A DNA stretch of 64,000 nucleotides from an uncultured delta proteobacterium (lineage in GTDB: Bacteria > Desulfobacterota > Desulfomonilia > Desulfomonilales > Desulfomonilaceae). Below, piece by piece: positions 779-52,067 of this stretch (positions are counted from its first letter, which is position 1; the number at the start of each line of letters is the position of its first letter). The notes under the pieces were generated by a model, which ran no database searches, was not told where the DNA came from, and saw nothing but the letters and a program-made list of their open reading frames with translations. The position numbers and the translations under genes were made by a program. The stretch covers positions 416,001 through 480,000 of the forward strand of contig CAWBKB010000001.1 of assembly GCA_963789265.1 (NCBI GenBank). The letters run 5' to 3'.

Positions 779-1328
779 AATTCCGGGTACACCATACTCA
801 ATTCCCTTTTGAAGTTCCTTTTGGTACGGGTTTCCGCATGACGAAAATAGGCCGTAATTCTGCGATTGCCTCGCTGTATGACGTGATGAGGCATTCTCGG
901 AGCCACCCCTCGTGCTGCCTGACCGAAAGGCGTGCCTCATACCAACTCCCATAGCTAGAAAGCTACAACGAAGCATGAAAACGTCAGTAGGACCGGCATC
1001 TTGCCGGTCGGTAACAGGACGTTTTCATAGGATTTGCTTTCGCACAAGTGGCACCGTGTTTCCGGTAGGGGCGGGTTTCAAACCCGCCCTTACATATCGT
1101 CATGCCCGCATAGGCGGGCATTTGTAGGGGCGAATGGCATTCGCCCTGGGCGACCGCCGGTCGCCCCTACAGTCCCCGGATCGAAGTCCGGAGTGATCTC
1201 GCGGAACGCGGGATAGGCAGGACGCCTGCCCCACCATATCCTCGCAGGGTTATCACTTGTTTGATGGCGCACTGGTATTAGAGAATAAGATTCGTTTGTC
1301 AACAATCAAGTATGGTGTACCCGGAAGT
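779..1328. mobile_element. Non-autonomous element with ~25-bp TIRs, carrying the 5' end of a RAYT/Y1 transposase and internal GTAG-REP hairpins
   Basis: Ends AATTCCGGGTACACCATACTCAATT and AATCAAGTATGGTGTACCCGGAAGT; minus-strand remnant APRMPHHVIQRGNRR; homologous to 1924-2130. Confidence 0.7.
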
Positions 1329-1359
1329 ATCAGACGCTCATTTCTTTCGTCCAGGATGC

Positions 1360-1815
1360 TTACGGCTCCTTTCCTATTATCGCCCTGGCGGCCAAAGCGG
1401 TGATTATCCCGTAGGGCAGATTTATCAGCAGCAGGTAGACTGTGAACACCGGCCCCCCAAACTGAAGCCCGAAATACCCTGCGCCCCTCATCGGCAGGAA
1501 GATCAAAAACAACGCCAGCACCGGTGCGAGGAAGTATAGAAGACCGAACAGGTAGAGTCGCTTCCAGGCGGTCTTGATAAGGAGCCCGAACGGGATGCCC
1601 CACAGCCCGCCCCAGAAGAGCGGCCTGTATACATCCGGCGCTTTCAAGGAGATCGGGCCCTTTACCCCGAATATTGCGCTAACCCCGAACCCAAACAGGA
1701 TGTGGCTGAAAAGGACCACGGCCAGTCCGCCTACAACCCCCGCCGTGAAGCAGATTGCCACCCGTTGTATCAGGGTTAAACCTTTTCCCATCACGTTCAA
1801 ACCTTTTTCGTCCAT
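1360..1815 (-). CDS. Hypothetical integral membrane protein (~4 TM)
   Basis: Hydrophobic ORF with YRPLFWGGLWG motif; RBS AAGGGGG before ATG 1815. Confidence 0.75.
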   Translation of the reverse strand: MDEKGLNVMGKGLTLIQRVAICFTAGVVGGLAVVLFSHILFGFGVSAIFGVKGPISLKAPDVYRPLFWGGLWGIPFGLLIKTAWKRLYLFGLLYFLAPVLALFLIFLPMRGAGYFGLQFGGPVFTVYLLLINLPYGIITALAARAIIGKEP

Positions 1816-1923
1816 GTTCAAACCCCCTTTATTGGTGCGCCACAAGAAGGCCTTGCAGAAGGTTGCCAGCCCATATACCATGCTCATACGGTAAACTGCG
1901 AAAACCTCTTAATTATCTATAGG

Positions 1924-2130
1924 AATTCCGGGTACACCATGCTCAATTCCCTTTGGAAGTTCCTTTCGGTCCGGGTTTCCTCATGACGAAAAAAGGTCGG
2001 CAGTCTGCGATTGCCGCGCCGTATGACGTGATGAGGCATTCTCGGAGCCACCGCTCGTGCTACTTGACCCAAAGGCATATCAGAGAATAAGACTGGTTTG
2101 TCAACAATTAAATGTGGTGTACCCGGAACT
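1924..2130. mobile_element. 207-bp RAYT-derived MITE
   Basis: TIRs AATTCCGGGTACACCATGCTCAATT / AATTAAATGTGGTGTACCCGGAACT; internal remnant QVARAVAPRMPHHVIRRGNRRLPTFF. Confidence 0.75.
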
Positions 2131-2142
2131 CCCATTTTCTTC

Positions 2143-2186
2143 TTGACACTCGGCCGGCAAAGTTTTACACTTCGTAATATGTCGAA
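2143..2186 (+). promoter_or_regulatory. Sigma70 promoter and probable ArsR operator
   Basis: TTGACA(2143)-17 bp-TACACT(2166); inverted repeat TTCG-TAATATGT-CGAA (2171-2186) over ATG 2179. Confidence 0.6.
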
Positions 2187-2556
2187 TAATAGAACCGTAA
2201 ACCTGCAGCGATGCGCCGACATGTTCAAAGCGCTGGGCAATTCCCATCGACTGGCCATCTTTCTCAGGCTCATCTCCTGTTGCCCTCCGGGCACCCAGTG
2301 GGTGGAAGGGCCTGAATCGCGGCGGGTCGTGGGTCAACTGGGTGAAGAACTGGACATTGCCCCGTCGACGCTTTCTCACCACATCAAAGAACTTCGCACA
2401 GCCGGACTCATCCGTGCAGAAAGGCGAGGCAAACAAATCGAATGCTCGGTCGATGCGAAGGCGCTGGACACCTTGATTGATCTTTTGGCAGGTCAAAGAT
2501 CGGATGATTCACCTGCGGGTCAGAACCGTTGCCGTACGTGCGAAGAGGCGGACTGA
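2179..2556 (+). CDS. arsR: ArsR/SmtB transcriptional repressor
   Basis: FKALGNSHRLAI...APSTLSHHIKELRTAGLI; CC pair and C-terminal CRTC; upstream of arsM. Confidence 0.88.
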   Translation: MSNNRTVNLQRCADMFKALGNSHRLAIFLRLISCCPPGTQWVEGPESRRVVGQLGEELDIAPSTLSHHIKELRTAGLIRAERRGKQIECSVDAKALDTLIDLLAGQRSDDSPAGQNRCRTCEEAD

Positions 2557-2717
2557 AGCTCCGATCATCAGGTCACTTCACTCCTCAAAATTCCTGAACA
2601 TAGGTAGCACAGGTTTCTGTCCGGCCTACTCACGTGGATACGTTGGTCCGCTTGAAGGGTCGTGTCAGCGCAGAGGAGTTCTTTATCTTTATCACCCGGA
2701 AAGGGGGACGATCACAA

Positions 2718-3245
2718 ATGCTTTCAACAAGTGCAGTATCAAAGGACCTGGGCCGCATGATGGAACTGGCTCAACTGGGATTCCATTGCAGCGACATACT
2801 TGTCTTCATGGGCCTGGAGGCTCAGGGGAAGGTCAATCCCGATGCCGTTCGACTTGCGTCTGCTCTCGCCGGCGGTGTCGGCTCGTCCGGAGATATCTGT
2901 GGGGCATTCACAGGAGGTGCTTGTCTTCTCGGACTCTATGCCGGCAGGGGCGTATCCGACGAAGAAGAGGACCCCAGGCTCCGCATGATGATCTCAGAGC
3001 TATTGGACTGGTTCTCGGCTGAGCAGGAAAAGCGATACGGCGGGATTCATTGCAGCGAAATCACCGAGGATGATCCTCAAAACATGCCTATGAGATGCCC
3101 TCAGATTGTCGCGGCTGTTTACCGCAGAGTAAGGGCAATCCTTGACCAAAATGGCTTCGACTGGAAAGTTGGACCAAAGCCGGTGAGACGAAGGGAAACA
3201 GCGTCCTCTTGTAGCGCTGCCTGCCCGGTTGCAGCGAGGCTGTGA
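2718..3245 (+). CDS. C-GCAxxG-C-C family putative redox protein
   Basis: FHCS...ICGAFTGG...IHCSEI...RCPQIV pattern. Confidence 0.85.
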   Translation: MLSTSAVSKDLGRMMELAQLGFHCSDILVFMGLEAQGKVNPDAVRLASALAGGVGSSGDICGAFTGGACLLGLYAGRGVSDEEEDPRLRMMISELLDWFSAEQEKRYGGIHCSEITEDDPQNMPMRCPQIVAAVYRRVRAILDQNGFDWKVGPKPVRRRETASSCSAACPVAARL

Positions 3246-3274
3246 CCAAAGCGCTCATTTGATAGGAGTACCAG

Positions 3275-4079
3275 ATGAAAGATACAGAACCGGTTGAAAT
3301 TAGGGAGTCCGTGAGGAAAAAATACGGTAAAATAGCGCATCAGAGGCCCTCATGCGGGTGCGGGCCCCCAAGCTGCTGCGGAGGCCCTGCATCCGGACCT
3401 GACGGTTCGTCCGCAATCCGGGTGGGATATTCGCGGGAAGATTTAGAAACCGCGCCATTGGGGTCCGAATTGGGGCTTGGGTGCGGCAATCCGCAGGCCG
3501 TGGCCCATTTGCAGCCCGGAGAAATCGTTTCTGGATCTCGGTAGCGGAGCCGGATTTGACAGTTTTCTGGCGGCCAAAAAAGTAGGACCAACCGGACATG
3601 TCATCGGCGTGGACATGACCCCGGAAATGCTGGACAAAGCGCGGGACTTCGCGAAAAACGATTCGTACCCGAATGTGGAATTCCGACTGGGAGAGATCGA
3701 AAACCTCCCGTTGGCGGATGCCAGTGTGGACGTGATCATTTCCAATTGTGTGATAAATCTTTCCATAGACAAACTGCGTGTCTTCCGCGAGGCATTCCGC
3801 GTTTTGAAGCCGGGAGGCCGACTGGCCATTTCCGACATAGTCGCTATTGGAGAATTGCCCGATAATATCCGTAGGGATCTCGATCTGTATGCAAGTTGTA
3901 TTTCAGGAGCCATCAGCCTTGCCGAAATTGAAGGGATGCTTCAACAATCGGGGTTCCAGGACATACGTATTCGATGCAAAGACCGGAGCGGCGAGTACAT
4001 TAGTCACTGGGCCAAAGCAGACAATATCAAGGATCTGATTGCCTCGGCGTCTATTGAAGCGGTGAAGCCAACGCAGTAA
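3275..4079 (+). CDS. arsM: Arsenite S-adenosylmethionine methyltransferase (apparent +1 frameshift near 3529)
   Basis: LGLGCGNP, LDLGSGAGFD, SNCVINLS, ASCISGA motifs split across ORFs 3275-3544 and 3477-4079. Confidence 0.9.
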
Positions 4080-4253
4080 CCGGAGAGACTTCCAAACAAA
4101 AAGATACGGTGCAGGAGCGGAACGCGTGGCACGGTATGTAAAAGCACCTTTTACAGCCAGGCCGTAAGCCCGCTCCTGCTCGGCCAGCCGAAAAGCAGGG
4201 AACAGTCTCAGGGAAAATGGGCGGCGACAGTTGAAAAGATGGCCCTGGAAGCC

Positions 4254-4301
4254 GGCAGTCCCAAGGGGTTTAGAACCCCTGTCTCCGCCGTGAGAGGGCG
4301 G
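4254..4301 (-). repeat. Copy of the 3' part of tRNA-Glu (att-like), 1 mismatch
   Basis: GGCAGTCCCAAGGGGTTTAGAACCCCTGTCTCCGCCGTGAGAGGGCGG matches 15904-15951; IHF consensus TATCAATCACTTG at 4317-4329. Confidence 0.92.
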
Positions 4302-4387
4302 GCCAACAAATAATAATATCAATCACTTGACCAATTTGCTCGAATTCCGGCGCTCTCAACATCCGTCATAGTAACCTGAAATCCATC

Positions 4388-4610
4388 TTACAAGTCACGC
4401 AAGAGCAGCTCATACTCTGCATGAGAACCGACCCAGAACTACACTATAGCATCATCATCCTTCAGGCCCAAAGCTCTCCAACCGATACCGACACGAATGG
4501 GATAAACGGGCATGCGCTTGCCGACGAGCTTAAACTTTACGTTGGGATGGTTAGGATTTTCTTTCCATAACTTGTAGTTTTTGCGGCCAAGATGACGATG
4601 CACCTCAAAA
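4388..4610 (-). pseudogene. RelE/ParE-like toxin remnant with internal TAG and no N-terminus
   Basis: RKNYKLWKENPNHPNVKFK...IRVGIGWRALG...AIV*FWVGSHAEYELLLRDL; the stop sits where Trp is usual (WFWIGSH). Confidence 0.7.
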
Positions 4611-4616
4611 TTGGAA

Positions 4617-5102
4617 TTATCGAGTTCCCCATTGTGTGTCGAGATGCGGATCGTATTCTTGATCGTCGTCCGGTCGAAACCCTTTCTCATATTCAAAAAG
4701 ATCAACCACGTGCCCCTGCATATATGGACGGCCAGTCCTAGGGCAACGGTGAAATTCCCAAGTGTGTTCAAGATATGCCTTGATAAGTTTACTCCTAGGG
4801 CTACGCTCAGGCCGGTAACTGTACGTCAAATTCATTTTTGTCTTGGCAATCGTTTTCTCCTCCCCCTCATGCACCCGAATATCGAAGTAATGGTGTTGCT
4901 CGTCAAAAAACTTGCGCTTCGTAATCTGATGATCCTCGAAATCCGCATATCCCTCCCATCGCTTCGTTCCGAATTCCATGTAAAAACCTTCTTCGGCAAT
5001 GATAGGAAGAAAAGCTGAGAGGCCCGCCTGTAGATCGTGGAGCCGAGCCCATTCCAGAATTATCTCTCTCGCCTCTTTTTCCGTAACAGGAGCCTGTGTC
5101 AT
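4617..5102 (-). CDS. NTF2/SnoaL-like fold protein
   Basis: 161-aa ORF; GGAGGG RBS; WEGYADF...HTWEF pattern typical of NTF2-like proteins. Confidence 0.6.
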   Translation of the reverse strand: MTQAPVTEKEAREIILEWARLHDLQAGLSAFLPIIAEEGFYMEFGTKRWEGYADFEDHQITKRKFFDEQHHYFDIRVHEGEEKTIAKTKMNLTYSYRPERSPRSKLIKAYLEHTWEFHRCPRTGRPYMQGHVVDLFEYEKGFRPDDDQEYDPHLDTQWGTR

Positions 5103-5441
5103 GAGAATTCCCTCCACAGGCTGATAATACACCAGGAGTCGGAGCAGACGCAAGTTTGCCGCCAGCAGACAGTCCGGAGTTGTCACAGGATACTTGGACT
5201 GGAATCATGCGGTGGACCTGCCCCCTTATTCGATAAGTCCAATTGCGCTGTTGACTAGCGCTGTGCAAATGCCGAAGTTTTGTTAATAGGGTTTCGTCGG
5301 CTTCGCGCCAAACCGAGGATATGTGCCTTGGATGGCAATTGCGGGAGCGCTTCGCTCTGCCGACGATCTCACTGCGAAGGATCTTGAACAAGGCACCGAT
5401 AGCACGGCGTCCGGCAAATAATACAGAGAAAGGAGTTAACA

Positions 5442-5852
5442 ATGGCCGCCATAGATAACAGGACATTGGTTCGTTCACGCATCGAAAAGGGATGCAACCA
5501 GCACGATCTGGATGCTGCTTACGAGTTGGTCAATGAAGACTACATACTGCACGACCCAGCGATGCCGGACTCTCAAGGCCGCGAGGCTCATAAAGAAATG
5601 TGCAAGGGTTTTGCTGATGCAATGCGGGACTCCCATTGCACCATAGAAGACCAAGTCGCGGAGGGAGATAAAGTGGTGACACGCTGGACATTCTCGGCCT
5701 GTCAGACCAAAGACCTGCCAGAATTGCCGTCCAAGGGCAAGTGCTTCAAGGTGGACGGGATCACCATCAGCCGAATCGCTGACGGAAAGGTTGCGGAAGA
5801 ATGGGTGAACATGGACGCTTTGGGCATGCGGCAACAACTCGGGAGCGCCTAA
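5442..5852 (+). CDS. SnoaL-like ester cyclase
   Basis: TIEDQVAEGDKVVTRWT...GITISRIADGKVAEEW; AGGAG RBS. Confidence 0.88.
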   Translation: MAAIDNRTLVRSRIEKGCNQHDLDAAYELVNEDYILHDPAMPDSQGREAHKEMCKGFADAMRDSHCTIEDQVAEGDKVVTRWTFSACQTKDLPELPSKGKCFKVDGITISRIADGKVAEEWVNMDALGMRQQLGSA

Positions 5853-5880
5853 ACAACCCGGTCACTGAACCTTCCCTGTA

Positions 5881-6045
5881 AGTTTCGGGGACACCGCACT
5901 TAATTTGGGTTACGATCCGCTAATTAAGGAAGGTGTCCCCAAATCTCTCAGATCTCATTTTTGTGCAGCCATCATTGTACAAGAATTCCGGGTACACCAT
6001 ACTCAATTCCCTTTGGGGGTTCCTTTCGGTTCAGGTTTCCGCCTA
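5881..6045. repeat. Mini and partial copies of the RAYT-derived TIR element
   Basis: TTCGGGGACACC...GGTGTCCCCAAA mini element, then AATTCCGGGTACACCATACTCAATTCCC at 5984. Confidence 0.6.
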
Positions 6046-6154
6046 TGGAATACTCTGGCAAGCTCGTTTTCCTGTCTAGTTATGAAATCATCACGCCCGC
6101 GGGGCCTGCCGGTTCGTTCGTGGAGACGCAAGCTCTGATGTCGAGGTGATATGC

Positions 6155-6203
6155 TGGCAGTCCCAAGGGGTTTCGAACCCCTGTCTCCGCCGTGAGAGGG
6201 CGG
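6155..6203 (-). repeat. Exact copy of the 3' 49 nt of tRNA-Glu (att-like)
   Basis: Identical to 15903-15951; IHF-like TATCAGTCAGTTA at 6220-6232. Confidence 0.95.
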
Positions 6204-6697
6204 GCCAACATAGGTATAATATCAGTCAGTTAACTGATTTTCCCAAATTTGAGCACCCTCAACATCTCTGAATGTAACCCGAAATTACTCGACATTCAAG
6301 TAAAACGGGGGAAAGCGGGGGTTGACCATGAGGGACAGTGACGTTGACACGGAGGAGGACCTTGAGATAGGCTTAAACGACTGCATGAAGAGGGTCCTTG
6401 CGAGGAAAAGAGACGGCGGCTACTCAATTCGCGTGTGTCGATAACGCCAGAAACCGCAGCGTGAAAGTCCGAAATATTGAGGAGCAGCTACCAAGATCTA
6501 TAAAACAGGCCCGAAAATTATTGTATGTCATTCGCGACCGTACTGAACGCTAAACGGATTCTTCCGAGGATGAGTAATCTCCGTGACTCATGGAATTGCT
6601 ATGGATGGACTGGTGAGCAGATGCTCCGGCACAATGTTGAATTCTCGTTGGTCCCCGTCACGTACAGATTTGGACGGACGGGCCATGGGGCCGAATA

Positions 6698-8473
6698 ATG
6701 ACAGACGAGGAGAAATCGAAATCTGGGCTCATTGAGGAACTGAAGTCTCTGCGACGAAGACTCGAAGCAGCCGAGGCCGAAACCGTAGACTGCCAAAGTT
6801 TGGAAGAGCGTCTCAAGGAACAAATTGATTTCGATCATCTTCTGCTCGATGCTTCACCATCCTTCTTCATCGCTGTAGACCCTCAGGGCAAGATACTCTC
6901 GGCCAATAGGGCGTTCCTGGCAATGACCGGATACGAGTTGGATGAAGTCAAAGGAGCTGATTACCTGTCTACATTTATTCCAGAGGACGAACGGGGGGAT
7001 CTGATCAAGCTGATGAGATCTATGGTACAGAGTGGGGCGCCTACAATTAACCGCAACCGTATATTGAAGAAAGATGGCACGAAATTCAGTGTCGAGTGGC
7101 ACGGCCGTCCGGTGATCAAAGCGAATGGAGAAACCGATTACTTCTTTGCCATCGGCAGTGACGTCTCTCAGCGTGATAAGTCCGAGCATGAAATCCGACA
7201 GGCTCAAGAACAGCTTGAAATCAAAGTAGAACAGCGTACAGCGGAACTCCTCATCCTCAACGAGCAACTGGAACGACAGATCTTCGAGGTGAAACGAACG
7301 GAAGAGCAGCTCAAAGAAAGTGAACGACGGTATCGCGTGCTTACGGATAGCTCGTTAACCGGGATATACATTCACCAGAATGGGCGCTTCACCTTTGTCA
7401 ATGAACGACTTGCCCAAATGCTCGGCTACTTGCCGGAGGAAATGCTCGGCGAGAGCATCTGGAAGTTCGTATACCCGGATGACAAAGAGCGCATAATGCA
7501 GACTGTCAGTGAACGAGGACAGCAGACTGCGGACGATCCACCATACGAATTCCGAGTCAGATGCAAAGATGGAAGCCTCAAATGGGTCGAGGCCCTTCCC
7601 ACTGAAATCGCGTTTCGCGGCGCAAGCGCACACATGGGAAACGTTGCGGACATTTCGGAACGGAAGCGTGTAGAGCAGGCACTAGAGGAAAAGATAAGAA
7701 CGATCGACGAGCTGTACCAGCACATTATTCAGTCCCGGCAAGTACAAGCGATCGAGGAGCATACAGCGAACGTGGCGCACGAGTTAAGACAGCCTTTGAC
7801 CATCATTGGCGGATTTGCCCGCAGGCTCAAAGCAGTTTGTGTTCCCTGCCCCAAATGCGAGAACTTTGCAAAGTCACCCGGAGACGAACTCTTTCAAATT
7901 GTGATCGATGAAGTGAAGCGCTTGGAGCGCATACTGGGGGGGCTCATCGACTTCACGAAACGGGACAAACTCGTCATTCAACCGGCCGATCCGAATTCAC
8001 TTATCGCGTACGTGCTCAGGATCAACAGAAACAGGATAGATGAGAAGAATCTACGCTTGGCGCTGAACATCGCACAGGACGTGAAAAGCGTTCCACTGGA
8101 TCAGACCCGATTTCAGCACGTACTCAGAAATCTGATCGCCAACGCGATTGAAGCGTCTCCGCCGAGTGAGACCATTCATGTGGAATCAACTATTTCCGAA
8201 CCCAGCGAAGAGGCTCGCCGCACGGGGAAACTCCAATCGAGAATCTATTACACGCTCAGGGTTCGAAACCGTGGAACACCAATTTCCAAGGACGAACTTG
8301 AGAAGATATTCAATCCCTTCTTCACCACGAAGGACTACGGAACCGGTCTCGGACTGACATTGTCGAGAAAGATCGTGGAAGATCATAATGGGTCGATTTC
8401 CGCAACATCCGACAAGGAAGGAACCGTTTTCACCGTGATGATCCCCATGCCGGAGACCGACTTTTCCACATAA
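6698..8473 (+). CDS. Cytoplasmic PAS-PAS sensor histidine kinase
   Basis: Two PAS domains, H-box VAHELRQPL, NLIANA, FNPFFTTK, GTGLGL. Confidence 0.93.
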   Translation: MTDEEKSKSGLIEELKSLRRRLEAAEAETVDCQSLEERLKEQIDFDHLLLDASPSFFIAVDPQGKILSANRAFLAMTGYELDEVKGADYLSTFIPEDERGDLIKLMRSMVQSGAPTINRNRILKKDGTKFSVEWHGRPVIKANGETDYFFAIGSDVSQRDKSEHEIRQAQEQLEIKVEQRTAELLILNEQLERQIFEVKRTEEQLKESERRYRVLTDSSLTGIYIHQNGRFTFVNERLAQMLGYLPEEMLGESIWKFVYPDDKERIMQTVSERGQQTADDPPYEFRVRCKDGSLKWVEALPTEIAFRGASAHMGNVADISERKRVEQALEEKIRTIDELYQHIIQSRQVQAIEEHTANVAHELRQPLTIIGGFARRLKAVCVPCPKCENFAKSPGDELFQIVIDEVKRLERILGGLIDFTKRDKLVIQPADPNSLIAYVLRINRNRIDEKNLRLALNIAQDVKSVPLDQTRFQHVLRNLIANAIEASPPSETIHVESTISEPSEEARRTGKLQSRIYYTLRVRNRGTPISKDELEKIFNPFFTTKDYGTGLGLTLSRKIVEDHNGSISATSDKEGTVFTVMIPMPETDFST

Positions 8474-43951: not shown

Positions 43952-44716
43952 TTATCGGATCTCAGAGAGAATCAGCGGTCCGTTGTCCGTGATTGCGATT
44001 GAGTGTTCAAAGTGAGCGGAGAGTTTGCCGTCTGCGGTCACCGCGGTCCACTCGTCATCGAGGAGTCTGATTTTCCATGTTCCTTCGTTCACCATCGGTT
44101 CCAGGGCCAGTGCCATCCCAACCTGCAAGCGCGGATTCCAGCCGGCCCCTTTGTAATTCGGAATCTGGGGAGGCTCGTGCATCCTTCTGCCTATGCCGTG
44201 ACCTACAAAATCACGCACAACTGAAAAGCCCTGTGATTCCACATGGCTCTGGATAGCACCGGAGATGTCTTGGAGCCGATTGCCAGCCACGGCTTTCTTT
44301 ATCCCTTCATAAAGAGATTCTCGCGTAATGTTCAACAGTTTGAGGGCTTCAGCGGATATTTCCCCCACAGGATATGTTTGCGCTGAATCTCCAACAAACC
44401 CCCTATAGACCACTCCCACGTCAACCCCGACAATGTCCCCTTCTTTGAGGACACGAGAGCCGGGAATCCCATGGACCACCTCCTCATTGACAGACGAGCA
44501 GATGGCCGCAGGATAAGGCTTGTTGTTGCGCATCCGATAACCCTTGAACGCGGCTTTTGCCTTGGCCTGGATAATCATTGCTTCGGCCACTTTGTTAAGT
44601 TCACCTGTTGTGGTGCCGGGTTGGATCATTTGCCCTAATCGTTCCAAGATTTCGGCCACAATTCGGTTCGCATCTCTCATGGTCTCGATTTCACGAGAGG
44701 TTTTTAACACGATCAT
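43952..44716 (-). CDS. map: Methionine aminopeptidase type I
   Basis: SVNEEVVHGIP, GHGIG...HE, EPM, SAHFEH. Confidence 0.97.
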   Translation of the reverse strand: MIVLKTSREIETMRDANRIVAEILERLGQMIQPGTTTGELNKVAEAMIIQAKAKAAFKGYRMRNNKPYPAAICSSVNEEVVHGIPGSRVLKEGDIVGVDVGVVYRGFVGDSAQTYPVGEISAEALKLLNITRESLYEGIKKAVAGNRLQDISGAIQSHVESQGFSVVRDFVGHGIGRRMHEPPQIPNYKGAGWNPRLQVGMALALEPMVNEGTWKIRLLDDEWTAVTADGKLSAHFEHSIAITDNGPLILSEIR

Positions 44717-44952
44717 CGGATTTTTCACAACCGTCGCCCCTGCTTCCTGAATCCTAGCCGCATTATACAACGCCAATCGTACCATACCAGAAATTTGAGG
44801 CGCATGGATGGAGAAATCTCGCGACGATGGTAATAGTTCACCGCGGAGAATTCCGTTTTCTTCACACGTCTACGCGATGATTCCTGTTCGCTCTCGTATA
44901 AGTGAAAATCGGCAAAAGGTTTTCTCTGAACAGTTACCATTCGGTACCGCCC

Positions 44953-45609
44953 TCACGGAGTATCGTTCGTAGGCAAAGCAGCATCGTCAACGAAAGGTCG
45001 AAATGGTCGCCTTATGACCCAGCGCTTCCCTCCCGCGGGCAGACGCCCTATCAAGTGACGTCCCAAATGTATTTGCAATTCCGAACCTCGCATGCTGCCA
45101 AACCGAACAATCCTTGTTGGCATAAGGGACAAAAGCCATGCACCCAATTTCTTCAGCAGACCCGACCCGGGAGTTGCAGGCCTGGCATATAATCTCCTGT
45201 CGATAAAGCTGCGCACGTTCATAATGCGGCCGATCGCCCGGCCCGCAAGGCCGCCGTATATTCTCCGCGACTCTTTCCCTCTGTGTGCTGATACTATTCG
45301 GCCTAAAATCCAACTTGGTTCCACGACGTACGGGTCGACAAGATTGTTGTTGTCTCCTCTGGTGAGTACTCCTTGAGCGTCGCTGGAAACCACCCGATGG
45401 ACTATCGCTTGCCCACCATCAGGATGAATGAACAAGATGACGTCTCCGCACCTAATCGTCCTGCCGTCATACGGGACTATATGGAGGATATCTGAAGCTC
45501 GGAATGTGGGATTCATGCTGGGACCGGCATAGAACATCCATTGCCCGGTTAGGAACCGAAGACAACTGACTTTGGCAGGCGCATGATCTGGCGAGCAATC
45601 CATATTCAA
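44953..45609 (-). CDS. S26 signal-peptidase-like protein of the RiPP cluster
   Basis: GPSMNP (Ser), IVHRV, TRGDNN; no obvious N-terminal membrane anchor. Confidence 0.8.
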   Translation of the reverse strand: MNMDCSPDHAPAKVSCLRFLTGQWMFYAGPSMNPTFRASDILHIVPYDGRTIRCGDVILFIHPDGGQAIVHRVVSSDAQGVLTRGDNNNLVDPYVVEPSWILGRIVSAHRGKESRRIYGGLAGRAIGRIMNVRSFIDRRLYARPATPGSGLLKKLGAWLLSLMPTRIVRFGSMRGSELQIHLGRHLIGRLPAGGKRWVIRRPFRPFVDDAALPTNDTP

Positions 45610-45892: not shown

Positions 45893-46813
45893 CTATTTCC
45901 GATCCAATGCCTTCTCTATTCCTTCCCAGAAGCGACCGGTGAGGCTCGCTCGCAAAGTGAAGGTCGGCACGGCTTTGGCGAGATCGCACGAATTCGCAAA
46001 TAGCTTCAAATTGTTGTCTCTTTGCACGTCGTTTTCCGGACGTCGCCACATTCGCCCGCACACCTGACCTGCCGACTGGTTGATCCTTGCCGCGGCTCGG
46101 GCCTGGCCGATGCGGGCGACATCGTCGCTCTCGCCCTGGTCCAAGAAGAAAATCGCAGAAAGTGGAGTCGGTCTCTGCACGTTCCAAGTCTTCTCGGCCC
46201 TCCGAAAAAGGTAATCACTCCATGTCGGGAACGGATGTGCATGGTAAGATCCGGATGCCGAACGCACTACGAGTGTCTCGTCATCACATAAAACCTTCCA
46301 AGATTGGGGAACGCGTCGGCAGCACGTGCTCTTGCCTCGGCCTCCACTGGCCGCAATCAGAATTCCCTTACCGTCATGCTCGACCAAAGCCGCGTGGAGT
46401 GGCGTACCTCCCTGGTCGATTGCAGCCCGATAGAAGGGGAAAACCGCCTGCTGCATGGCCAGGATTGCCGGATCGTGATGCCCTATATCCAACAGTTCAC
46501 AAACCATGTCAGGTACGTCGGGATTGGACCAGATACGCAGTGCTAAGAGATCGTGCATCTTCCAACCGCTGTGCGGAAGAGCGGATGGCTTGGGTAACAG
46601 AGGGAGGGGATTGGCAGTTTGACAACGGCCGATTCCTTCACCGCATTTAACGATGCTTATTTTTCGGAGCCCATCTGACTTTCCCGGCCTCAAAGTCATG
46701 ATTGAAGCCAGTTGGTTCAGCCAGGCCGATGTACCGTTGCTCGCAACGAGGCGCCATGCAAGGCCGTCATTCAGATGGAGGATATAGGAGTTGTCACCAC
46801 ATGTTTTCTGCAT
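45893..46813 (-). CDS. scmC: SynChlorMet cassette protein ScmC (HPr-kinase-like P-loop protein)
   Basis: LHAALVE..GKGILIAASGGRGKSTCCRR...LCDDE...HPFPTWS. Confidence 0.88.
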   Translation of the reverse strand: MQKTCGDNSYILHLNDGLAWRLVASNGTSAWLNQLASIMTLRPGKSDGLRKISIVKCGEGIGRCQTANPLPLLPKPSALPHSGWKMHDLLALRIWSNPDVPDMVCELLDIGHHDPAILAMQQAVFPFYRAAIDQGGTPLHAALVEHDGKGILIAASGGRGKSTCCRRVPQSWKVLCDDETLVVRSASGSYHAHPFPTWSDYLFRRAEKTWNVQRPTPLSAIFFLDQGESDDVARIGQARAAARINQSAGQVCGRMWRRPENDVQRDNNLKLFANSCDLAKAVPTFTLRASLTGRFWEGIEKALDRK

Positions 46814-46874
46814 CAGTTATCTCAGCATCAAGCTTCTGTCAGTCGCTTTACGAGCTTGCTGACGAACTGGTTGA

Positions 46875-47081
46875 TTAGCCTCCATAAAAACCTGAAGAGC
46901 AATTCCTTGCGCCCCCACCATTCGGCTTACAGAATCCGCCCCCAGGAAACACTCCGTAATTCTTGCAAACCCCGGCATCCCCGCTCCCCAACGGGTTGCA
47001 AGCCCCTGAGGCGTACAGGTCATCCCGGTCGTCCATGTCCACTATCACGGGTTGGGTGTACGGAGGTCGCGAATTTTCCAT
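46875..47081 (-). CDS. Putative RiPP precursor peptide (68 aa, Cys/Gly-repeat core)
   Basis: TGATG overlap with scmF stop; GGAAGG RBS; leader PPYTQPVIVDM; core with C28, C39, C51, C61. Confidence 0.8.
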   Translation of the reverse strand: MENSRPPYTQPVIVDMDDRDDLYASGACNPLGSGDAGVCKNYGVFPGGGFCKPNGGGARNCSSGFYGG

Positions 47082-48220
47082 CAGCCGCATCCTTCCATAT
47101 TCTCCGGGCGATTTTGTCCCGGTGCAAAAAGCCGTGTCGTAGGAAACAGATCTCTCTTTGCAGCTTCCTCGCAGTACCAGTGTGGCGCCCAGAGGCTCTT
47201 GGAACGATAGAAATTCTGGGCCACACAGTTTCCGAGGCAGACACCCTTCATCAGGCAGTCACCGCATATTCCTTGCAGACGCCTCGGCAGGCCATTTCTC
47301 AGGTTTTGAAGAATAGGATTGTTGTTCCAAAGATCTTCCAACCGATCACGACCTGCGTGGCCGAAGACAAGCTCCGGCACGGTTTCTCCGATGCCGCAAA
47401 GCGCGTACGAACCATTACCGAGCACTCCAAGTATGCCCAATATGCCACATTGCCCGCCCCCGTCTCCTTGCTCTCCGAACATCTTGTTCAATGGACGAAA
47501 GGCCATGGGATGGCTGTAAAACAGCCTGAGCCTTGTTTTGGCAGAAAGTTCAGTCTCGACCCAGCGGCCCAGTTCCACTAGTTCGTCCATGGAGAGCGTC
47601 TCACCGGCCTCGTGCAGGCGTTCGCCTCGTGCCGTGGGCTGAACCATGTTGAACTTCACCGAGCCAGCGCCGAGCGACTCGGCCAGCCGAACCACTTGTT
47701 CCATCTGATCTCTGTTTCGGCGGATCAGAGACATTATCACTTGCGGTCTGATGCCTACGGCGACAAGATTCTTGATCCCGCTGAGGGCGGCATCGAAGCA
47801 TCCCCTAACCCCTCTCATCCATTCATGGGTTTGGGCATCCGAACCGTCCAGGCTCACCGAAACGGACGGGCCTTCACAAGCCTTTATCTTTGCAGCTAAT
47901 TCCGCGCTTAAAGCCACCCCGTTGGTTTCAATGGTGAGACTCAACTCCTGACAGCGGAGATAATCGAGGATTTCGCCTATTCGGGGGTGGATCAATGGCT
48001 CGCCGCCGGTTAATTTGACTGCGGAAAGACCCAGCAGTATGGCCTGATCTATGATGTGGAGAAACAACTCGAAATCAAGTGCAGTGGCTGATGCGCCTTC
48101 GCTCTGGTAGGTGGGTGCTATCCAGCAGTGGCGGCAACGGAGATTGCACTTTTCAGTCAGATAGAAGTAGAGTTGATTTAGAGGAAATTCGCGTTTAGTT
48201 GTCATAGGTTGAGCAGACAT
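47081..48220 (-). CDS. scmF: Radical SAM/SPASM protein, ScmF type
   Basis: YFYLTEKCNLRCRHCWIAP; SPASM CGILG...ALCG...CGDCLMKGVCLGNC. Confidence 0.9.
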   Translation of the reverse strand: MSAQPMTTKREFPLNQLYFYLTEKCNLRCRHCWIAPTYQSEGASATALDFELFLHIIDQAILLGLSAVKLTGGEPLIHPRIGEILDYLRCQELSLTIETNGVALSAELAAKIKACEGPSVSVSLDGSDAQTHEWMRGVRGCFDAALSGIKNLVAVGIRPQVIMSLIRRNRDQMEQVVRLAESLGAGSVKFNMVQPTARGERLHEAGETLSMDELVELGRWVETELSAKTRLRLFYSHPMAFRPLNKMFGEQGDGGGQCGILGILGVLGNGSYALCGIGETVPELVFGHAGRDRLEDLWNNNPILQNLRNGLPRRLQGICGDCLMKGVCLGNCVAQNFYRSKSLWAPHWYCEEAAKRDLFPTTRLFAPGQNRPENMEGCG

Positions 48221-48468
48221 AAGTTGGTAGGACAGGCATCCTGCCTGTCATTCCCAATCGACAGGCAGGATGCCCCTAGGCGTTAAAATAAGCTTCAAGT
48301 CCTCTTCGTCCCGGAGGGACGTGCTGATAATAGCCCGGCGATTTATCGCCGGGAATGAACCGCCAAGAGACTTTTCTTCGTCCCCGAGGGGCGCCCGAAG
48401 GATGCATCCTTCGGGCGCCCCTCGGGGACGAAGATTGAATCATTGCTTATCGGTCACCCGGCAATGAA

Positions 48469-50144
48469 GAGAGTGTCTCAAAACGGTTGTAGTGGCACGA
48501 TGACGACTCTCGGGGTGGTAGGGTGCGGTTAATCTCGCACCTTGGCCTCCCTTGTCTCCGACGAGCCGGGGCCGGCTATGAGTATGCCTCAGGCAGCCAT
48601 GAGTCACTCTCCGTCCTGATGTCTTAGGCCGCGGTTAGCACCAGACGCCCCGTCAGCCAATGGCTGTAGAGCTTCTTGAGATTCAAGGTGGCGCACATCA
48701 AAGACCATTGAGCCTTCGCATTGGATAATCCGGACACGGTCCACCGTCTAAAGTCCAAGTGGCTCTTTATCCATGCAAAGACCGGCTCAATGATCACCTT
48801 GCGGGCTCGGAGTAGCGTCTTGCTTTCCGGGACCTCCCGTTTCTTGCGGTGACGCTCAACTGCGTCACGATAGATGTTAATGTCTATGAGACGGCCATTC
48901 TTGCTCTTGCTGCACTTCCACCGTTCAGGACACGTCAAGTAGTCCCGGCATCGATACCGCCGGATCTCGTTTCCGTTTTTTCCTGTGACTTTCTTCTGAA
49001 GAAAGTTCAGCGATGCGCCTTGCGGACAAATACAGACGTCTCGCTCTTGGTCGTAGACGAACTGGGAAGCGTGATAAGGGTCCCATTGAGCGCCTTTTTC
49101 CGCAGCGGACTCTCCCGACGACTTGGCGACCAAGACCTCGTACTCCTTCTCTTCGGCCAACGCGATTTGAGCCGATGCGAAGTATCCTGCGTCCGCCACG
49201 GTTTCCTCTGCGGTTGCGCCCAAATTTTCCTGAACTCGATCCAGCATGGGAACAAGCTGCCCATTGTCATTGCCTTCGTCGACCACTTCCTCAGCCACAA
49301 TCATGCCGCTTTGTTGGTCTGCCACCGCTTGAGCATTGTAAGAGGGCTCAGTAGACCGCCGGTTCTTCATGTACCGGGCATCCGGCTCGCAGGGATGGAC
49401 GACCTTCTTGTCAGTCTTATCCAATTCCTGCAAGGCCTTCTGTATCCGCTCCTTGCGTTTCAACTCGTCCTGCAGGGCTTCGGGAAGACGCCATTCGCCA
49501 CCCTCCTCTTGCTCGCACCTCTCTGTCTCCGTCATGACGTCGGCAACGCACTTGTCCAAATTCTCAAGCATCCGCTCCAACTGATCTTGGTTCTTGAACT
49601 TCTCCCGAGATGATCCGACAGGGATCTTGGTTCCATCCAATGCATGAACCGCCATACCTATCAACTCGGCTTTGACTGCCACTTGAACCGATTGTTTGAA
49701 TATTCCCTTGAAAACCTTCTTGTTGTCCCTCCAGAATCGCCACAGGGTATTATGATCCGCTGCATTCATACCCGTCAGCCAAATCAATCCCATGTTCTCC
49801 ATGCATGCCTTCTCAAGCTTGCGCGATGACCTGATTCTGCTGAAATAGCCGTAGAGCCATGCCTTCAACAAAAGATCGGTACTATAGGGAGGACGGCCCG
49901 TTTCGCCATTCGGAACTCGAAAACCCAGCACCTCCAAATCCAAGGAATCCACAAAGTCTCCTATGAAGCGCGCTGGATGATCAGGCCCTATCCAGTCATC
50001 TATAGCGGGCGGAAGCAGAAACACCTGCTTGTAGTCGGCTCTGATTTGCGGCATAATCCTTTCCCTCTCCGATTCTCTTTTCACATCTCATTAGTAGAAT
50101 CGGTTGAGAATCGCGAGCCCAAAATCGACTTTTGAGACAGTTTC
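48469..50144 (-). mobile_element. IS1182-family insertion sequence, 4-bp TSD TGAA
   Basis: TIRs GAGAGTGTCTCAAAA / TTTTGAGACAGTTTC; TGAA at 48465-48468 and 50145-50148. Confidence 0.92.
48624..50054 (-). CDS. IS1182-family transposase
   Basis: GRPPY...SSRKLE, ALDGTKI, YNAQ, ADAGY, IEPVFAWIK. Confidence 0.95.
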   Translation of the reverse strand: MPQIRADYKQVFLLPPAIDDWIGPDHPARFIGDFVDSLDLEVLGFRVPNGETGRPPYSTDLLLKAWLYGYFSRIRSSRKLEKACMENMGLIWLTGMNAADHNTLWRFWRDNKKVFKGIFKQSVQVAVKAELIGMAVHALDGTKIPVGSSREKFKNQDQLERMLENLDKCVADVMTETERCEQEEGGEWRLPEALQDELKRKERIQKALQELDKTDKKVVHPCEPDARYMKNRRSTEPSYNAQAVADQQSGMIVAEEVVDEGNDNGQLVPMLDRVQENLGATAEETVADAGYFASAQIALAEEKEYEVLVAKSSGESAAEKGAQWDPYHASQFVYDQERDVCICPQGASLNFLQKKVTGKNGNEIRRYRCRDYLTCPERWKCSKSKNGRLIDINIYRDAVERHRKKREVPESKTLLRARKVIIEPVFAWIKSHLDFRRWTVSGLSNAKAQWSLMCATLNLKKLYSHWLTGRLVLTAA

Positions 50145-50212
50145 TGAATTGCCGGGCTACTATCATTGAGCCCCTACAGGGCTCACAGAGGGCAGGCTCG
50201 TTATTTTAACGC

Positions 50213-51392
50213 CTATGGGCAGGACGCCTGTCCCACCGTCAGGTTTCGTTCTCGCTGCCCGCATGTGTCATGGCTTAGCGATGTGGTGACCGGATCCTCA
50301 TTCGGGAGAACGCCACCGGCCTCCAGGAAACGTTTATAGCAGGAATCAGGGCTCGGATGATAGGCATGACCTGTCATAGAATCCGCCATTGCGGGACAAC
50401 CGCCTCTGCAAAAGGCCACATACTCGCACCCACGACAAAAATCAAAATCTGCAAGGTGGATGGATGATCGATCCCGAAAACGATTAAGTTCCTCGCTGTT
50501 CAGCCACACTTCAGCCACCGAGTCAACGTTGATTCGGCCTAGTTCAATGTTTGACAGTTGCACGCAAGGGACTATGACCCCATCCGCCCTCACCGCCAAT
50601 TTGGTCATCGGGCCGCCGCAGCTCGTCAATTGTCCTCCACCGGGCAGCCTCTTCAACCCCTTTTCCCGCGCGTGTTCTATGTCGAGCCATGCCTGCGCTT
50701 CAGCCAGCGGTCCAGCCGTGGCGCTGATGCGGTCACCATATTTCTGTGTGAGCTTCAAGAGGGAGTCCATAGCCAGACATCGCTCTTCAACGGTAAGCTG
50801 GACCTCATCGGTGTTTTTCCGGCACAATCCTAAATAACCGGCCGAGTTTGTTGAAAACCCGGGAAGGCCAACTACTTCCAGGAGCAACTTAGAGACTTTC
50901 TCCAGGTCCTTGACGTTTCGTCTGTGAATTGTAACTCGGACGGACGCGGGGAGTCGATGTTCAAGAAGCAGCCTGAGGCCCTCCACCGCGCGCCGAAAAC
51001 TTCCATCGCCTCTGAAGCTGTCATGGGTAATCGGCATCGAGCCGTCAACAGAGACCTGAATGAAATTGCATCGGCCTGTGGAAGCTAGAAAGGCCGCGAG
51101 TTCACGTGTGATCAGAGTGCCGTTGGTGAGGAGGGAGAACCGCATCCGATTCCGTACGATCCCGTTCACGATTTCCCTGAAATCTTCACGAATGAAAGCC
51201 TCGCCCCCTTGCAGGCAAACCTCCATCACAGAGCAATCACGCAATTCTTCGAAAAACTTTAGCCATTCTCCGGTCGGCAGGTCTTCTTTAACGTCGCTTC
51301 CGCTCGTGAAATGGCTGCAGGTACTTGCAGCGCAGATTGCACTTGCCGGTGATCTCGATATCGACAGATCGCGGCGTCCTCATAAGAGTCAT
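50213..51392 (-). CDS. scmE: Radical SAM/SPASM protein, ScmE type (apparent +1 frameshift near 51320)
   Basis: MRTPRSVDIEITGKCNLRCKY|CSHFTS; SPASM CGG...PC...CRGCEYVAFCRGGC...PSPDSC. Confidence 0.88.
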
Positions 51393-51399
51393 GTCAGTA

Positions 51400-51687
51400 T
51401 CAATTGGCTTCGACCTCGTAACCAACAAAGCCTCGTGCTGCGAGGCCCTGAACAAATTCTTTCAGATGCGCGCCGGCTTCTTCCGGAACGTTTTCGAATT
51501 GATCCTGTAACTCGAGAAGAATCTCGCCTTCGGTGTGATTTCCATCAAGGCGTTTCCAGATGAACACACTTACAGGGTTCAACCCGAGCACCTTGCCCGA
51601 ATCCGGGTCGAAGAGCAAGGCCCACTCGTCAAATTCCTCACGCAACACAGTCAAGGGATTGGCTATCGGCCTGTCCGCTTTCGACAT
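51400..51687 (-). CDS. scmD: PqqD-family RRE protein ScmD
   Basis: LREEFDEWALLFDPD...LNPVSVFIWKRLDG. Confidence 0.9.
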   Translation of the reverse strand: MSKADRPIANPLTVLREEFDEWALLFDPDSGKVLGLNPVSVFIWKRLDGNHTEGEILLELQDQFENVPEEAGAHLKEFVQGLAARGFVGYEVEAN

Positions 51688-52067
51688 GGAGTCAGTTGCC
51701 TCCACCGCGCAACGAGGATACCCGCGAAAGAGAGGGATTAACCAAATGATAACATTAGAAATCTTTTAAATCAAGCCGGGCTTGCCGCAGGCAGTAACGA
51801 ATCAGCACACCAGTAACATCTTCCCGAATACATTGGCTGGAAAAAAGTAGGGGCAGACCCATGCGTCTGCCCCGCGCGGCCACGCGGGGCCACCCTGGAT
51901 GTCATCTATACCCATTGCCAAAAGTTTTCTCGTTCCCGGGCTCCGCCCGGGAATGCCTGTCAACGAGGCTCTGCCTCGACCACAATCGTGAAATAAGGGC
52001 AGTTTGCGGGCAGAGCCCGCGCTAGGTATGGATTCCCAGGCGGTCCCGCGAGACGTGGGATTTCACT

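Follow-up and report, generated by a model that had tools for sequence, protein, structure and literature searches.

Which gene supplies the substrate of the peptide-modifying enzymes encoded in this stretch of DNA? The stretch (hereafter the window) comprises 64,000 nucleotides from an uncultured delta proteobacterium of the Desulfomonilaceae (assembly GCA_963789265.1, contig CAWBKB010000001.1, positions 416,001 to 480,000). Judged by family matches, one group of its genes is the database-defined SynChlorMet (SCM) cassette, with two radical S-adenosylmethionine (SAM)/SPASM enzymes, ScmE and ScmF, the PqqD-family protein ScmD and the P-loop protein ScmC. A preliminary description of the sequence had proposed that a short open reading frame (ORF) of 68 codons between scmF and scmC encodes the precursor peptide of the cassette. 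The slot of this ORF, its conservation and a family-wide comparison support that proposal and point to a cassette-linked precursor gene. In our judgement it is highly probable that the ORF encodes a divergent ScmA-type precursor, the ribosomal substrate of its SCM cassette.

The minus-strand frame translates exactly as MENSRPPYTQPVIVDMDDRDDLYASGACNPLGSGDAGVCKNYGVFPGGGFCKPNGGGARNCSSGFYGG, the same peptide that had been described before. The Cys residues stand at positions 28, 39, 51 and 61, with gaps of 11, 12 and 10, and a Gly follows them at +4, +4, +4 and +3, giving the core modules C28NPLG, C39KNYG, C51KPNG and C61SSG. The leader (approximately residues 1 to 26 or 27) contains Y8-x-x-P11-V-I-V-D and an acidic DMDDRDD stretch. 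At TGATG (47083..47079, minus strand) the stop codon TGA of scmF and the ATG of the peptide gene have one base in common. All these details, from the peptide itself to the Cys gaps, the Gly offsets and the TGATG coupling, were reproduced exactly on re-reading. A longer frame (46875..47090) begins with an in-frame ATG three codons upstream and would read MRL-MENS. The ATG at 47081 is nevertheless the likely start codon, since MENS is the N-terminus of every homologue in the alignment and a Shine-Dalgarno-like GGAAGGA precedes this ATG by 8 nt, inside the 3' end of scmF. A contig of sequencing run X4 that derives from a relative skips 60 nt at 47081-47142.

Several lines of evidence indicate a real, selected gene. 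A search of 5.8 billion proteins returned four matches to the window peptide (99, 76, 64 and 66% identity); two of the homologues, P0002 and P0004, are annotated by JGI as 'hypothetical protein'. Within alignment A1, 22 invariant positions fall in the first 30 residues and 9 in the last 38, and a conserved leader followed by a variable core is the usual pattern for ribosomally made, post-translationally modified peptides (RiPPs). In comparison with the nearest relative, locus L001, the first 28 codons, which encode the leader, show 0, 5 and 10 differences at codon positions 1, 2 and 3, respectively, and the ratio of nonsynonymous to synonymous substitution rates (dN/dS) of the whole peptide gene is 0.31. 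The gene is syntenic in L001 and in a further related locus, L002. A profile made from the cassette-linked peptides of other loci, with L001 and L002 excluded, was run over 17,992 ORFs and gave the window peptide 30.0 bits (E 3.6e-07), aligning its modules with one-residue insertions. In a six-frame scan of the 6.06-Mb genome (120,075 ORFs), E values below 0.01 were obtained only for the window ORF and one other, the top score among reversed sequences being 15.8 bits.

Among 1.84 billion representative proteins, a profile search gave 11 matches at E of 0.001 or lower. P0128, P0130, P0132 and P0134 are more distant small proteins of the same build, while P0127 (589 aa) and P0133 (407 aa) were set aside as long repeat proteins that look unrelated. 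P0129, a protein of 209 aa from another metagenome, consists of a ScmF C-terminus fused to a ScmA-like peptide; it is a miscalled gene that hides a precursor, and so reveals the same scmF-peptide adjacency in that metagenome.

The occupancy of the precursor slot was surveyed across ScmC loci from other, species-representative genomes. A 21-protein ScmC alignment yielded 104 pattern matches, 89 of which were confirmed and the best 80 used. The record titles name Desulfobacterota-type deltaproteobacteria, Chlorobium, Methanocella, Nitrospirae, Omnitrophota, Aminicenantes and others. An initial census by regular expression gave candidates in 46 of the 80 loci, with false positives in L071 and L076 and several precursors missed, among them those of L018 and L022, and was superseded by a peptide profile. 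This profile was trained on 65 regex-picked peptides of the same 80 loci, and its counts include the training set: 92 ORFs of at least 20 bits were detected in 61 of the 80 loci, and none among reversed-sequence controls. Small ORFs with the same leader and Cys periodicity, for which the preliminary description had suggested a search near homologous clusters, were thereby found. Where scmF and scmC are adjacent, a peptide ORF lies between them in 41 of 50 loci. The order ScmD-ScmE-ScmF-ScmC, determined by tblastn with the window proteins, is kept in 33 of the 39 loci with all four genes, and in 40 of the 71 loci with enough sequence an S26-like ORF comes no more than 600 nt after scmC.

The window peptide shares the leader and the Cys periodicity of the family assembled in this way. 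The aromatic-x-x-P-x-(L/I/V) leader motif, originally noted as YxxP, occurs family-wide. The regular expression for the leader demands the Pro; alignment A4, comprising 27 peptides, was made without it, and there P11, C28, C61 and G64 are invariant and G26, G32, C39, G43 and C51 are conserved in at least 90% of the rows. The common family leader reads K-(Y/W)-E-K-P-x-L-(I/V)-x-L, and the window has Y-T-Q-P-V-I-V-D plus the acidic stretch. The first Cys comes 17-20 residues after the aromatic residue of the leader in 74 of 90 peptides and 20 residues after it in the window (Y8 to C28), and the three Cys gaps of the window fall inside the 9-12-residue range that covers 320 of 432 gaps in the family. 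Gly, Ser, Thr and Ala abound in the family cores, which carry 1 to 19 Cys per peptide and differ widely in length. The position of Gly is less uniform: among 517 Cys residues, Gly follows at +3 in 403 cases, at +4 in 65 and at neither position in 49. The earlier reading of the repeats as CxxxG therefore holds for three modules of this peptide, but it describes a minority form, the family-wide unit being C-x-x-G. The extra residue in the modules C-N-P-L-G, C-K-N-Y-G and C-K-P-N-G is common to close relatives of the window peptide.

The closest known counterpart is the catalogued ScmA family (TIGR04252), which its model name identifies as the cassette precursor and whose companions are the models TIGR04248 for ScmD, TIGR04249 (PF27840) for ScmC, TIGR04250 for ScmE and TIGR04251 for ScmF. 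The window peptide occupies the same slot of the same cassette and resembles ScmA in its leader motif, in the distance to the first Cys and in a Cys period of about 10-12 residues; it differs in having three modules of the form C-x-(P)-x-G, with Gly at +4, and in a leader that departs from K-Y-E-K-P-x-L. When TIGR04252 ('SCM_precur_ScmA', an equivalog model with a 35-bit cut-off) was compared with 48 cassette-linked peptides, 19 matched at E of 1 or lower and 12 at E of 0.01 or lower, the top score was 28.1 bits and none of the 48 reached 35, which is why we regard the model as narrower than the peptide family of the cassette. The ScmA family is thus already catalogued, but most members, that of the window included, escape annotation by its overly narrow curated model. 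The family itself is defined by computation alone. A literature search found no report of the SCM cassette or its product; the terms Scm, SynChlor, TIGR0425, HPr, Syntrophobacter and signal peptidase were not found in PMC10288494, and PMC13692751 deals with a different system, Crp of Methanococcus.

Two groups of characterized RiPP systems offer further parallels. Sactipeptide and ranthipeptide systems (SkfB, AlbA, PapB, SCIFF maturase) likewise combine a leader, a Cys core, radical SAM/SPASM enzymes and a RiPP recognition element (RRE) or PqqD-type element. ScmE and ScmF have weak NCBIfam matches to StsB, AlbA and PapB, far below the family cut-offs, and their next-best matches (AhbD, NirJ, MftC, WgkB and ACGX-system enzymes) are also far below theirs. 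By sequence, ScmF matches BlsE (7.3e-15), PqqE (1.8e-11) and SkfB (1.1e-10) in the PDB. The SCM system differs from these in possessing two maturases, the P-loop protein ScmC, an S26 peptidase and an RRE encoded as a separate protein. In lasso peptide systems a Y-x-x-P-x-L leader is recognized by a stand-alone PqqD-like B1 protein, and HprK-like kinases are associated with such systems. The SCM cassette is similar in its Y-x-x-P leader, its separate PqqD-like protein and the adjacent HprK-related P-loop protein; ScmC matches TIGR04352 at 2.4e-07, and one family member (L016) weakly matches the lasso leader model NF033521 (E 0.023, below cut-off). The window peptide has no match to NF033521 at E of 1 or lower, neither a lasso cyclase nor a B2 protease occurs among the cassette ORFs, and the core of the peptide, a Cys repeat, is not of the lasso kind.

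The number of precursor genes varies between loci. Tandem precursor paralogues are present in several cassettes (L003:4737-5906, L048, L064, L075:4615-5863 and L054); L003 has four of them, and L048 has eight profile matches together with at least three ScmC copies. The genome of the window, G000, contains a second ScmA-like ORF at C3:365858-366064 (L111:8859-9065, minus strand), which scores 48.2 bits against the peptide profile and 26.1 bits (E 7.1e-06, below cut-off) against TIGR04252. No SCM enzyme genes were detected among the 15 neighbour ORFs scanned, which marks it as an orphan precursor.

The features of the locus are collected below. On the minus strand the genes follow the order ScmD, ScmE, IS1182, ScmF, peptide, ScmC and S26 peptidase. 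ScmC, ScmD, ScmE and ScmF all exceed the curated NCBIfam cut-offs, with scmE frame-broken as assembled. A promoter and terminator scan gave site numbers at chance level (5 vs 4.9 and 7 vs 7.4); a TG-extended promoter-like site (51774-51746) lies upstream of scmD.

Features of the SCM cassette and its surroundings, in window coordinates
Feature	Position	Strand	Size or site	Basis
scmD, PqqD-family RRE-type peptide chaperone	51400..51705	minus		TIGR04248, 123.3 bits (cut-off 100); Pfam PqqD
scmE, radical SAM/SPASM	50213..51392	minus		TIGR04250, 482.5 bits (cut-off 400); profile 47-358 of 358 in one frame
Mobile DNA insertion at the scmE/scmF junction	48226..50237	minus	exact ends ambiguous	
IS1182-family transposase	48624-50084	minus		NF033551, 363.2 bits (cut-off 270)
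scmF, radical SAM/SPASM	47081..48220	minus		TIGR04251, 591.7 bits (cut-off 400); profile 1-353 of 353
GGAAGGA, Shine-Dalgarno-like	47096..47090	minus	8 nt before ATG 47081, inside scmF 3' end	read from sequence
scmA-like precursor gene	46875..47081, stop included	minus	68 aa plus stop	homologues, profile match, family traits
scmC, P-loop, HprK/PEPCK-like fold	45893..46813	minus		TIGR04249, 318.3 bits (cut-off 125); Walker A GGRGKST
S26/S24-type (archaeal/ER-type) signal-peptidase-like, candidate leader peptidase	44953..45609	minus		TIGR02228, 54.3 bits (cut-off 51.85)
Methionine aminopeptidase	43952-44785	minus		TIGR00500, 321.7 bits (cut-off 171.35)

Two features of the assembled cassette may impair its function. 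One is the DNA between scmE and scmF. In L001 the stop codon of scmE overlaps the start of scmF, whereas the window has about 2 kb there, with a transposase gene of the IS1182 family of insertion sequences (IS) and nested inverted repeats. The inner repeats (48457-48483/50130-50156) belong to the IS1182-family element and the outer ones (48226-48291/50201-50237) bound a shorter element around it; the reading frame of scmE continues into the inserted DNA. A contig of the public run X1 bridges 50146-50381 without differences, which places the insertion in an independent data set as well. In X1 the depth over the IS core is 52 and that of the flanks 3-5, so the core is either multi-copy or also present in other organisms. 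Run X4 has a high depth (49-61) over the outer element and a low one over the IS core, and a contig of run X2 links 48465 to 50152 with 18 other letters between.

The second feature is a break in the frame of scmE. An extra base at about 51320/51321 (minus strand) lies inside the CxxxCxxC motif, assembled as TGC AAG TAC C TGC AGC. Codons 1 to 24 (M...CNLRCKY) are read in one frame, which stops ten codons later (frame A, 34 codons), and the body of the gene, including the third Cys of the motif, reads in another. The break is found at the identical position in L001 (~3400), and L002 has an extra base 3 nt upstream (~3480). Across 47 ScmE hits the motif is in frame in 42, broken in 2 and cut by contig ends in 3. 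The 30 scmE loci of family genomes comprise 21 in frame, 5 without the pattern and 4 broken ones, namely those of the window, of the L001 and L002 genomes and of L109, which has lost one base at the same spot. However, the dN/dS of the scmE body is 0.105 against L001 and 0.133 against L002, as low as that of scmF; a genome of the same genus (L100) has an intact motif, and all 14 metagenome stretches that matched a pattern admitting either form are intact, five of them being 78-79% identical in nucleotides to the window and thus about as close as L002. The low dN/dS of the body and the intact copies in L100 and the metagenomes indicate that the break is neither an old pseudogene nor ancestral.

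In our judgement a recurrent assembly error is the most likely cause of the break. The L001 and L002 records belong to one isolate-name series, and a second maturase gene of this genome is also split. The latter, a CbpB-type radical SAM gene (TIGR04163; L111:2880-4302, contig C3 of G000), consists of two overlapping ORFs divided at profile position 152/153. A systematic error at CTGCAG was considered, but frame junctions showed no genome-wide enrichment at this 6-mer (7 of 1,596, or 0.44%, vs 0.39-1.11% for nine other 6-mers), in a test of low power that demanded 150 open codons on each side. Contigs of four runs list no indel at 51320/51321, where coverage of the site is not established (mean depth 2.34 in the X1 bin 51281-51506), and no slippery sequence was seen at the break. 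Alternatively, the break may be a real lineage-specific (parallel) change or a recoding event. The 6-mer CAGCTG is very rare in G000, with 90 occurrences on both strands vs 1,234-6,700 for nine other 6-mers, possibly owing to restriction-site avoidance.

A number of observations weigh against the identification of the window ORF as the cassette substrate. In 9 of the 50 loci with adjacent scmF and scmC no peptide ORF was found in the intervening slot; five of these (L007, L008, L009, L034 and L037) have one at another place in the locus, whereas L021, L036, L051 and L071 have none at all. The window peptide lacks a match to TIGR04252 or to any other NCBIfam model at E of 1 or lower, and to Pfam at E of 0.1 or lower. 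Three of its four modules place Gly at +4, vs the +3 of the family. The TGATG overlap between scmF and the peptide gene is not conserved but peculiar to the window, the L001 spacer measuring 218 nt (L001:5488-5706). Of 13 sequencing runs listed, none is recorded as RNA, which by itself speaks neither for nor against expression. None of the cassette enzymes has a characterized close homologue by NCBIfam or PDB sequence comparison, and the chemistry of the cassette is for this reason a guess. Moreover, the cassette may be impaired, as mobile DNA separates scmE from scmF and scmE needs a frame change within its SAM-cluster motif.

The last of these points leads to the possibility that the peptide is a genuine ScmA-type precursor in a cassette that is decaying here and gives little or no mature product. 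Such decay is compatible with the identity of the gene. In its favour are an scmE whose frame A ends after 34 codons with the break inside CxxxCxxC, the insertion exactly where scmE and scmF overlap in L001, which uncouples scmF-scmA-scmC from the operon start and is also found in the X1 contig (50146-50381), and the division of the CbpB-like maturase gene of L111 into two ORFs. We nevertheless regard it as unlikely: the body of scmE is under strong purifying selection, the break is absent from L100 and from the five metagenome contigs of 78-79% identity, and the ORFs of scmF, scmA, scmC and the peptidase are intact. In addition, the breaks seen in three assemblies are confined to the same few bases and differ in form, which looks more like an assembly artefact.

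The other explanations concern the peptide itself. It could be a substrate whose Cys-Gly module or modules are processed to a small molecule resembling a redox cofactor, in the way that PqqE- and MftC-type enzymes process PqqA and MftA. The PqqE, MftC and AhbD/NirJ families among the next-best NCBIfam matches of ScmE and ScmF, the presence of PqqE among the few PDB sequence matches and the homology of ScmD to PqqD all lean this way. RiPP precursors vary in their modules, however, and cofactor precursors have a fixed reactive pair. A Cys content of 1 to 19 per peptide, variable residues between Cys and Gly and tandem paralogues at several loci are therefore traits of a RiPP natural product rather than of a cofactor precursor, and make this outcome improbable. 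Still less probable is a small Cys/Gly-rich protein that the cassette leaves unmodified, for instance an accessory factor or a peptide that binds metal. The composition of the core would suit it, and the literature search found no modification for any member of the family, but an RRE-type leader motif that is conserved while the core varies, a constant position between two genes of the maturase cassette in 41 of 50 loci and the company of a PqqD-type protein and a candidate leader peptidase all speak for modification. An untranslated chance frame in a G+C-rich spacer or gene overlap might be suspected from the length of only 68 codons, the lack of Pfam and NCBIfam matches and the presence of overlapping open frames on the plus (46712-47581) and minus (46817-47023) strands. 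This explanation fails on conservation and can hardly be correct, given homologues that are 64-76% identical with an invariant leader, the profile E of 3.6e-07, the bias of differences towards third codon positions and the synteny in L001 and L002; the two overlapping frames have no family matches.

If the peptide is the precursor of its cassette, as we conclude, its maturation may be outlined from the domain families of the cassette proteins. ScmD, being of the PqqD type, would bind the leader (M1 to about G26) through the aromatic-x-x-P-x-(L/I/V) motif and present the core to ScmE and ScmF. The ScmD-leader complex, whose modelling the preliminary description had suggested, obtained a predicted score of 0.49, the best of three controls reaching 0.01, with at least 91% contact agreement between runs and a predicted local distance difference test (pLDDT) value of at least 55 for the partner. 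The complex thereby passed a mark that 116 of 157 solved complexes and 2 of 215 mismatched pairs also pass. Its score, however, falls within the band of 0.60 or under, which contains 18 of the 157 solved complexes and both of the mismatches that passed. Similar RRE-leader complexes have already been solved, and the pass may for that reason reflect memorization by the predictor. Taken together, the model weakly supports binding of the ScmA leader by ScmD.

ScmE and ScmF would then modify the four Cys modules, most likely through thioether cross-links of the sacti-/ranthipeptide type, with at most one per module. We give this chemistry an even chance, on the grounds that Cys and Gly are the conserved residues of the core and that SPASM enzymes are present. 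The preliminary description envisaged up to four rings, perhaps shared between ScmE and ScmF. ScmC might add a nucleotide-dependent step, e.g., phosphorylation. Its Walker A motif is invariant in the 21-row alignment, and its AlphaFold model (pLDDT 83.7, predicted template modelling score 0.84) has phosphoenolpyruvate carboxykinase (PEPCK) as the top Foldseek matches (E about 1e-8, template modelling score about 0.5), while a comparison with the PDB by sequence gave no match at E of 0.01 or lower. The PEPCK fold is that of the HprK C-terminal domain. Finally, the soluble S26-type peptidase may cut the leader, plausibly after a small-x-small motif, which in the window would be A24-S25-G26 / A27-C28. 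At least 90% of 58 cassette-linked homologues retain the GxS31MxP and H71-R72 boxes of this protein. Counted from the first Cys, positions -4 and -2 are both small residues in 52 of 90 peptides, and positions -3 and -1 in 12 of 90; this bias agrees with cleavage behind a small-x-small motif that leaves one residue ahead of the first Cys.

The cassette might even represent a new RiPP class, in which each C-x-x-G module of about 10 residues is worked on by two SPASM enzymes and ScmC, e.g., through a cross-link and a phosphorylation-dependent step. We put this forward as a tentative and somewhat doubtful suggestion. If it is true, the C-x-P-x-G rings of the window subfamily would exceed the family norm by one residue.

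The SCM cassette occurs widely among uncultured anaerobes, yet its product is absent from the literature we searched. On the evidence of its sequence and context, the window peptide is very probably a divergent member of a precursor family that is catalogued but chemically unstudied. The window gene adds an annotation and a construct that can be tested, but no new principle. Identification of the substrate gene, together with divergent forms overlooked by the curated model, makes the heterologous reconstitution of the cassette possible.

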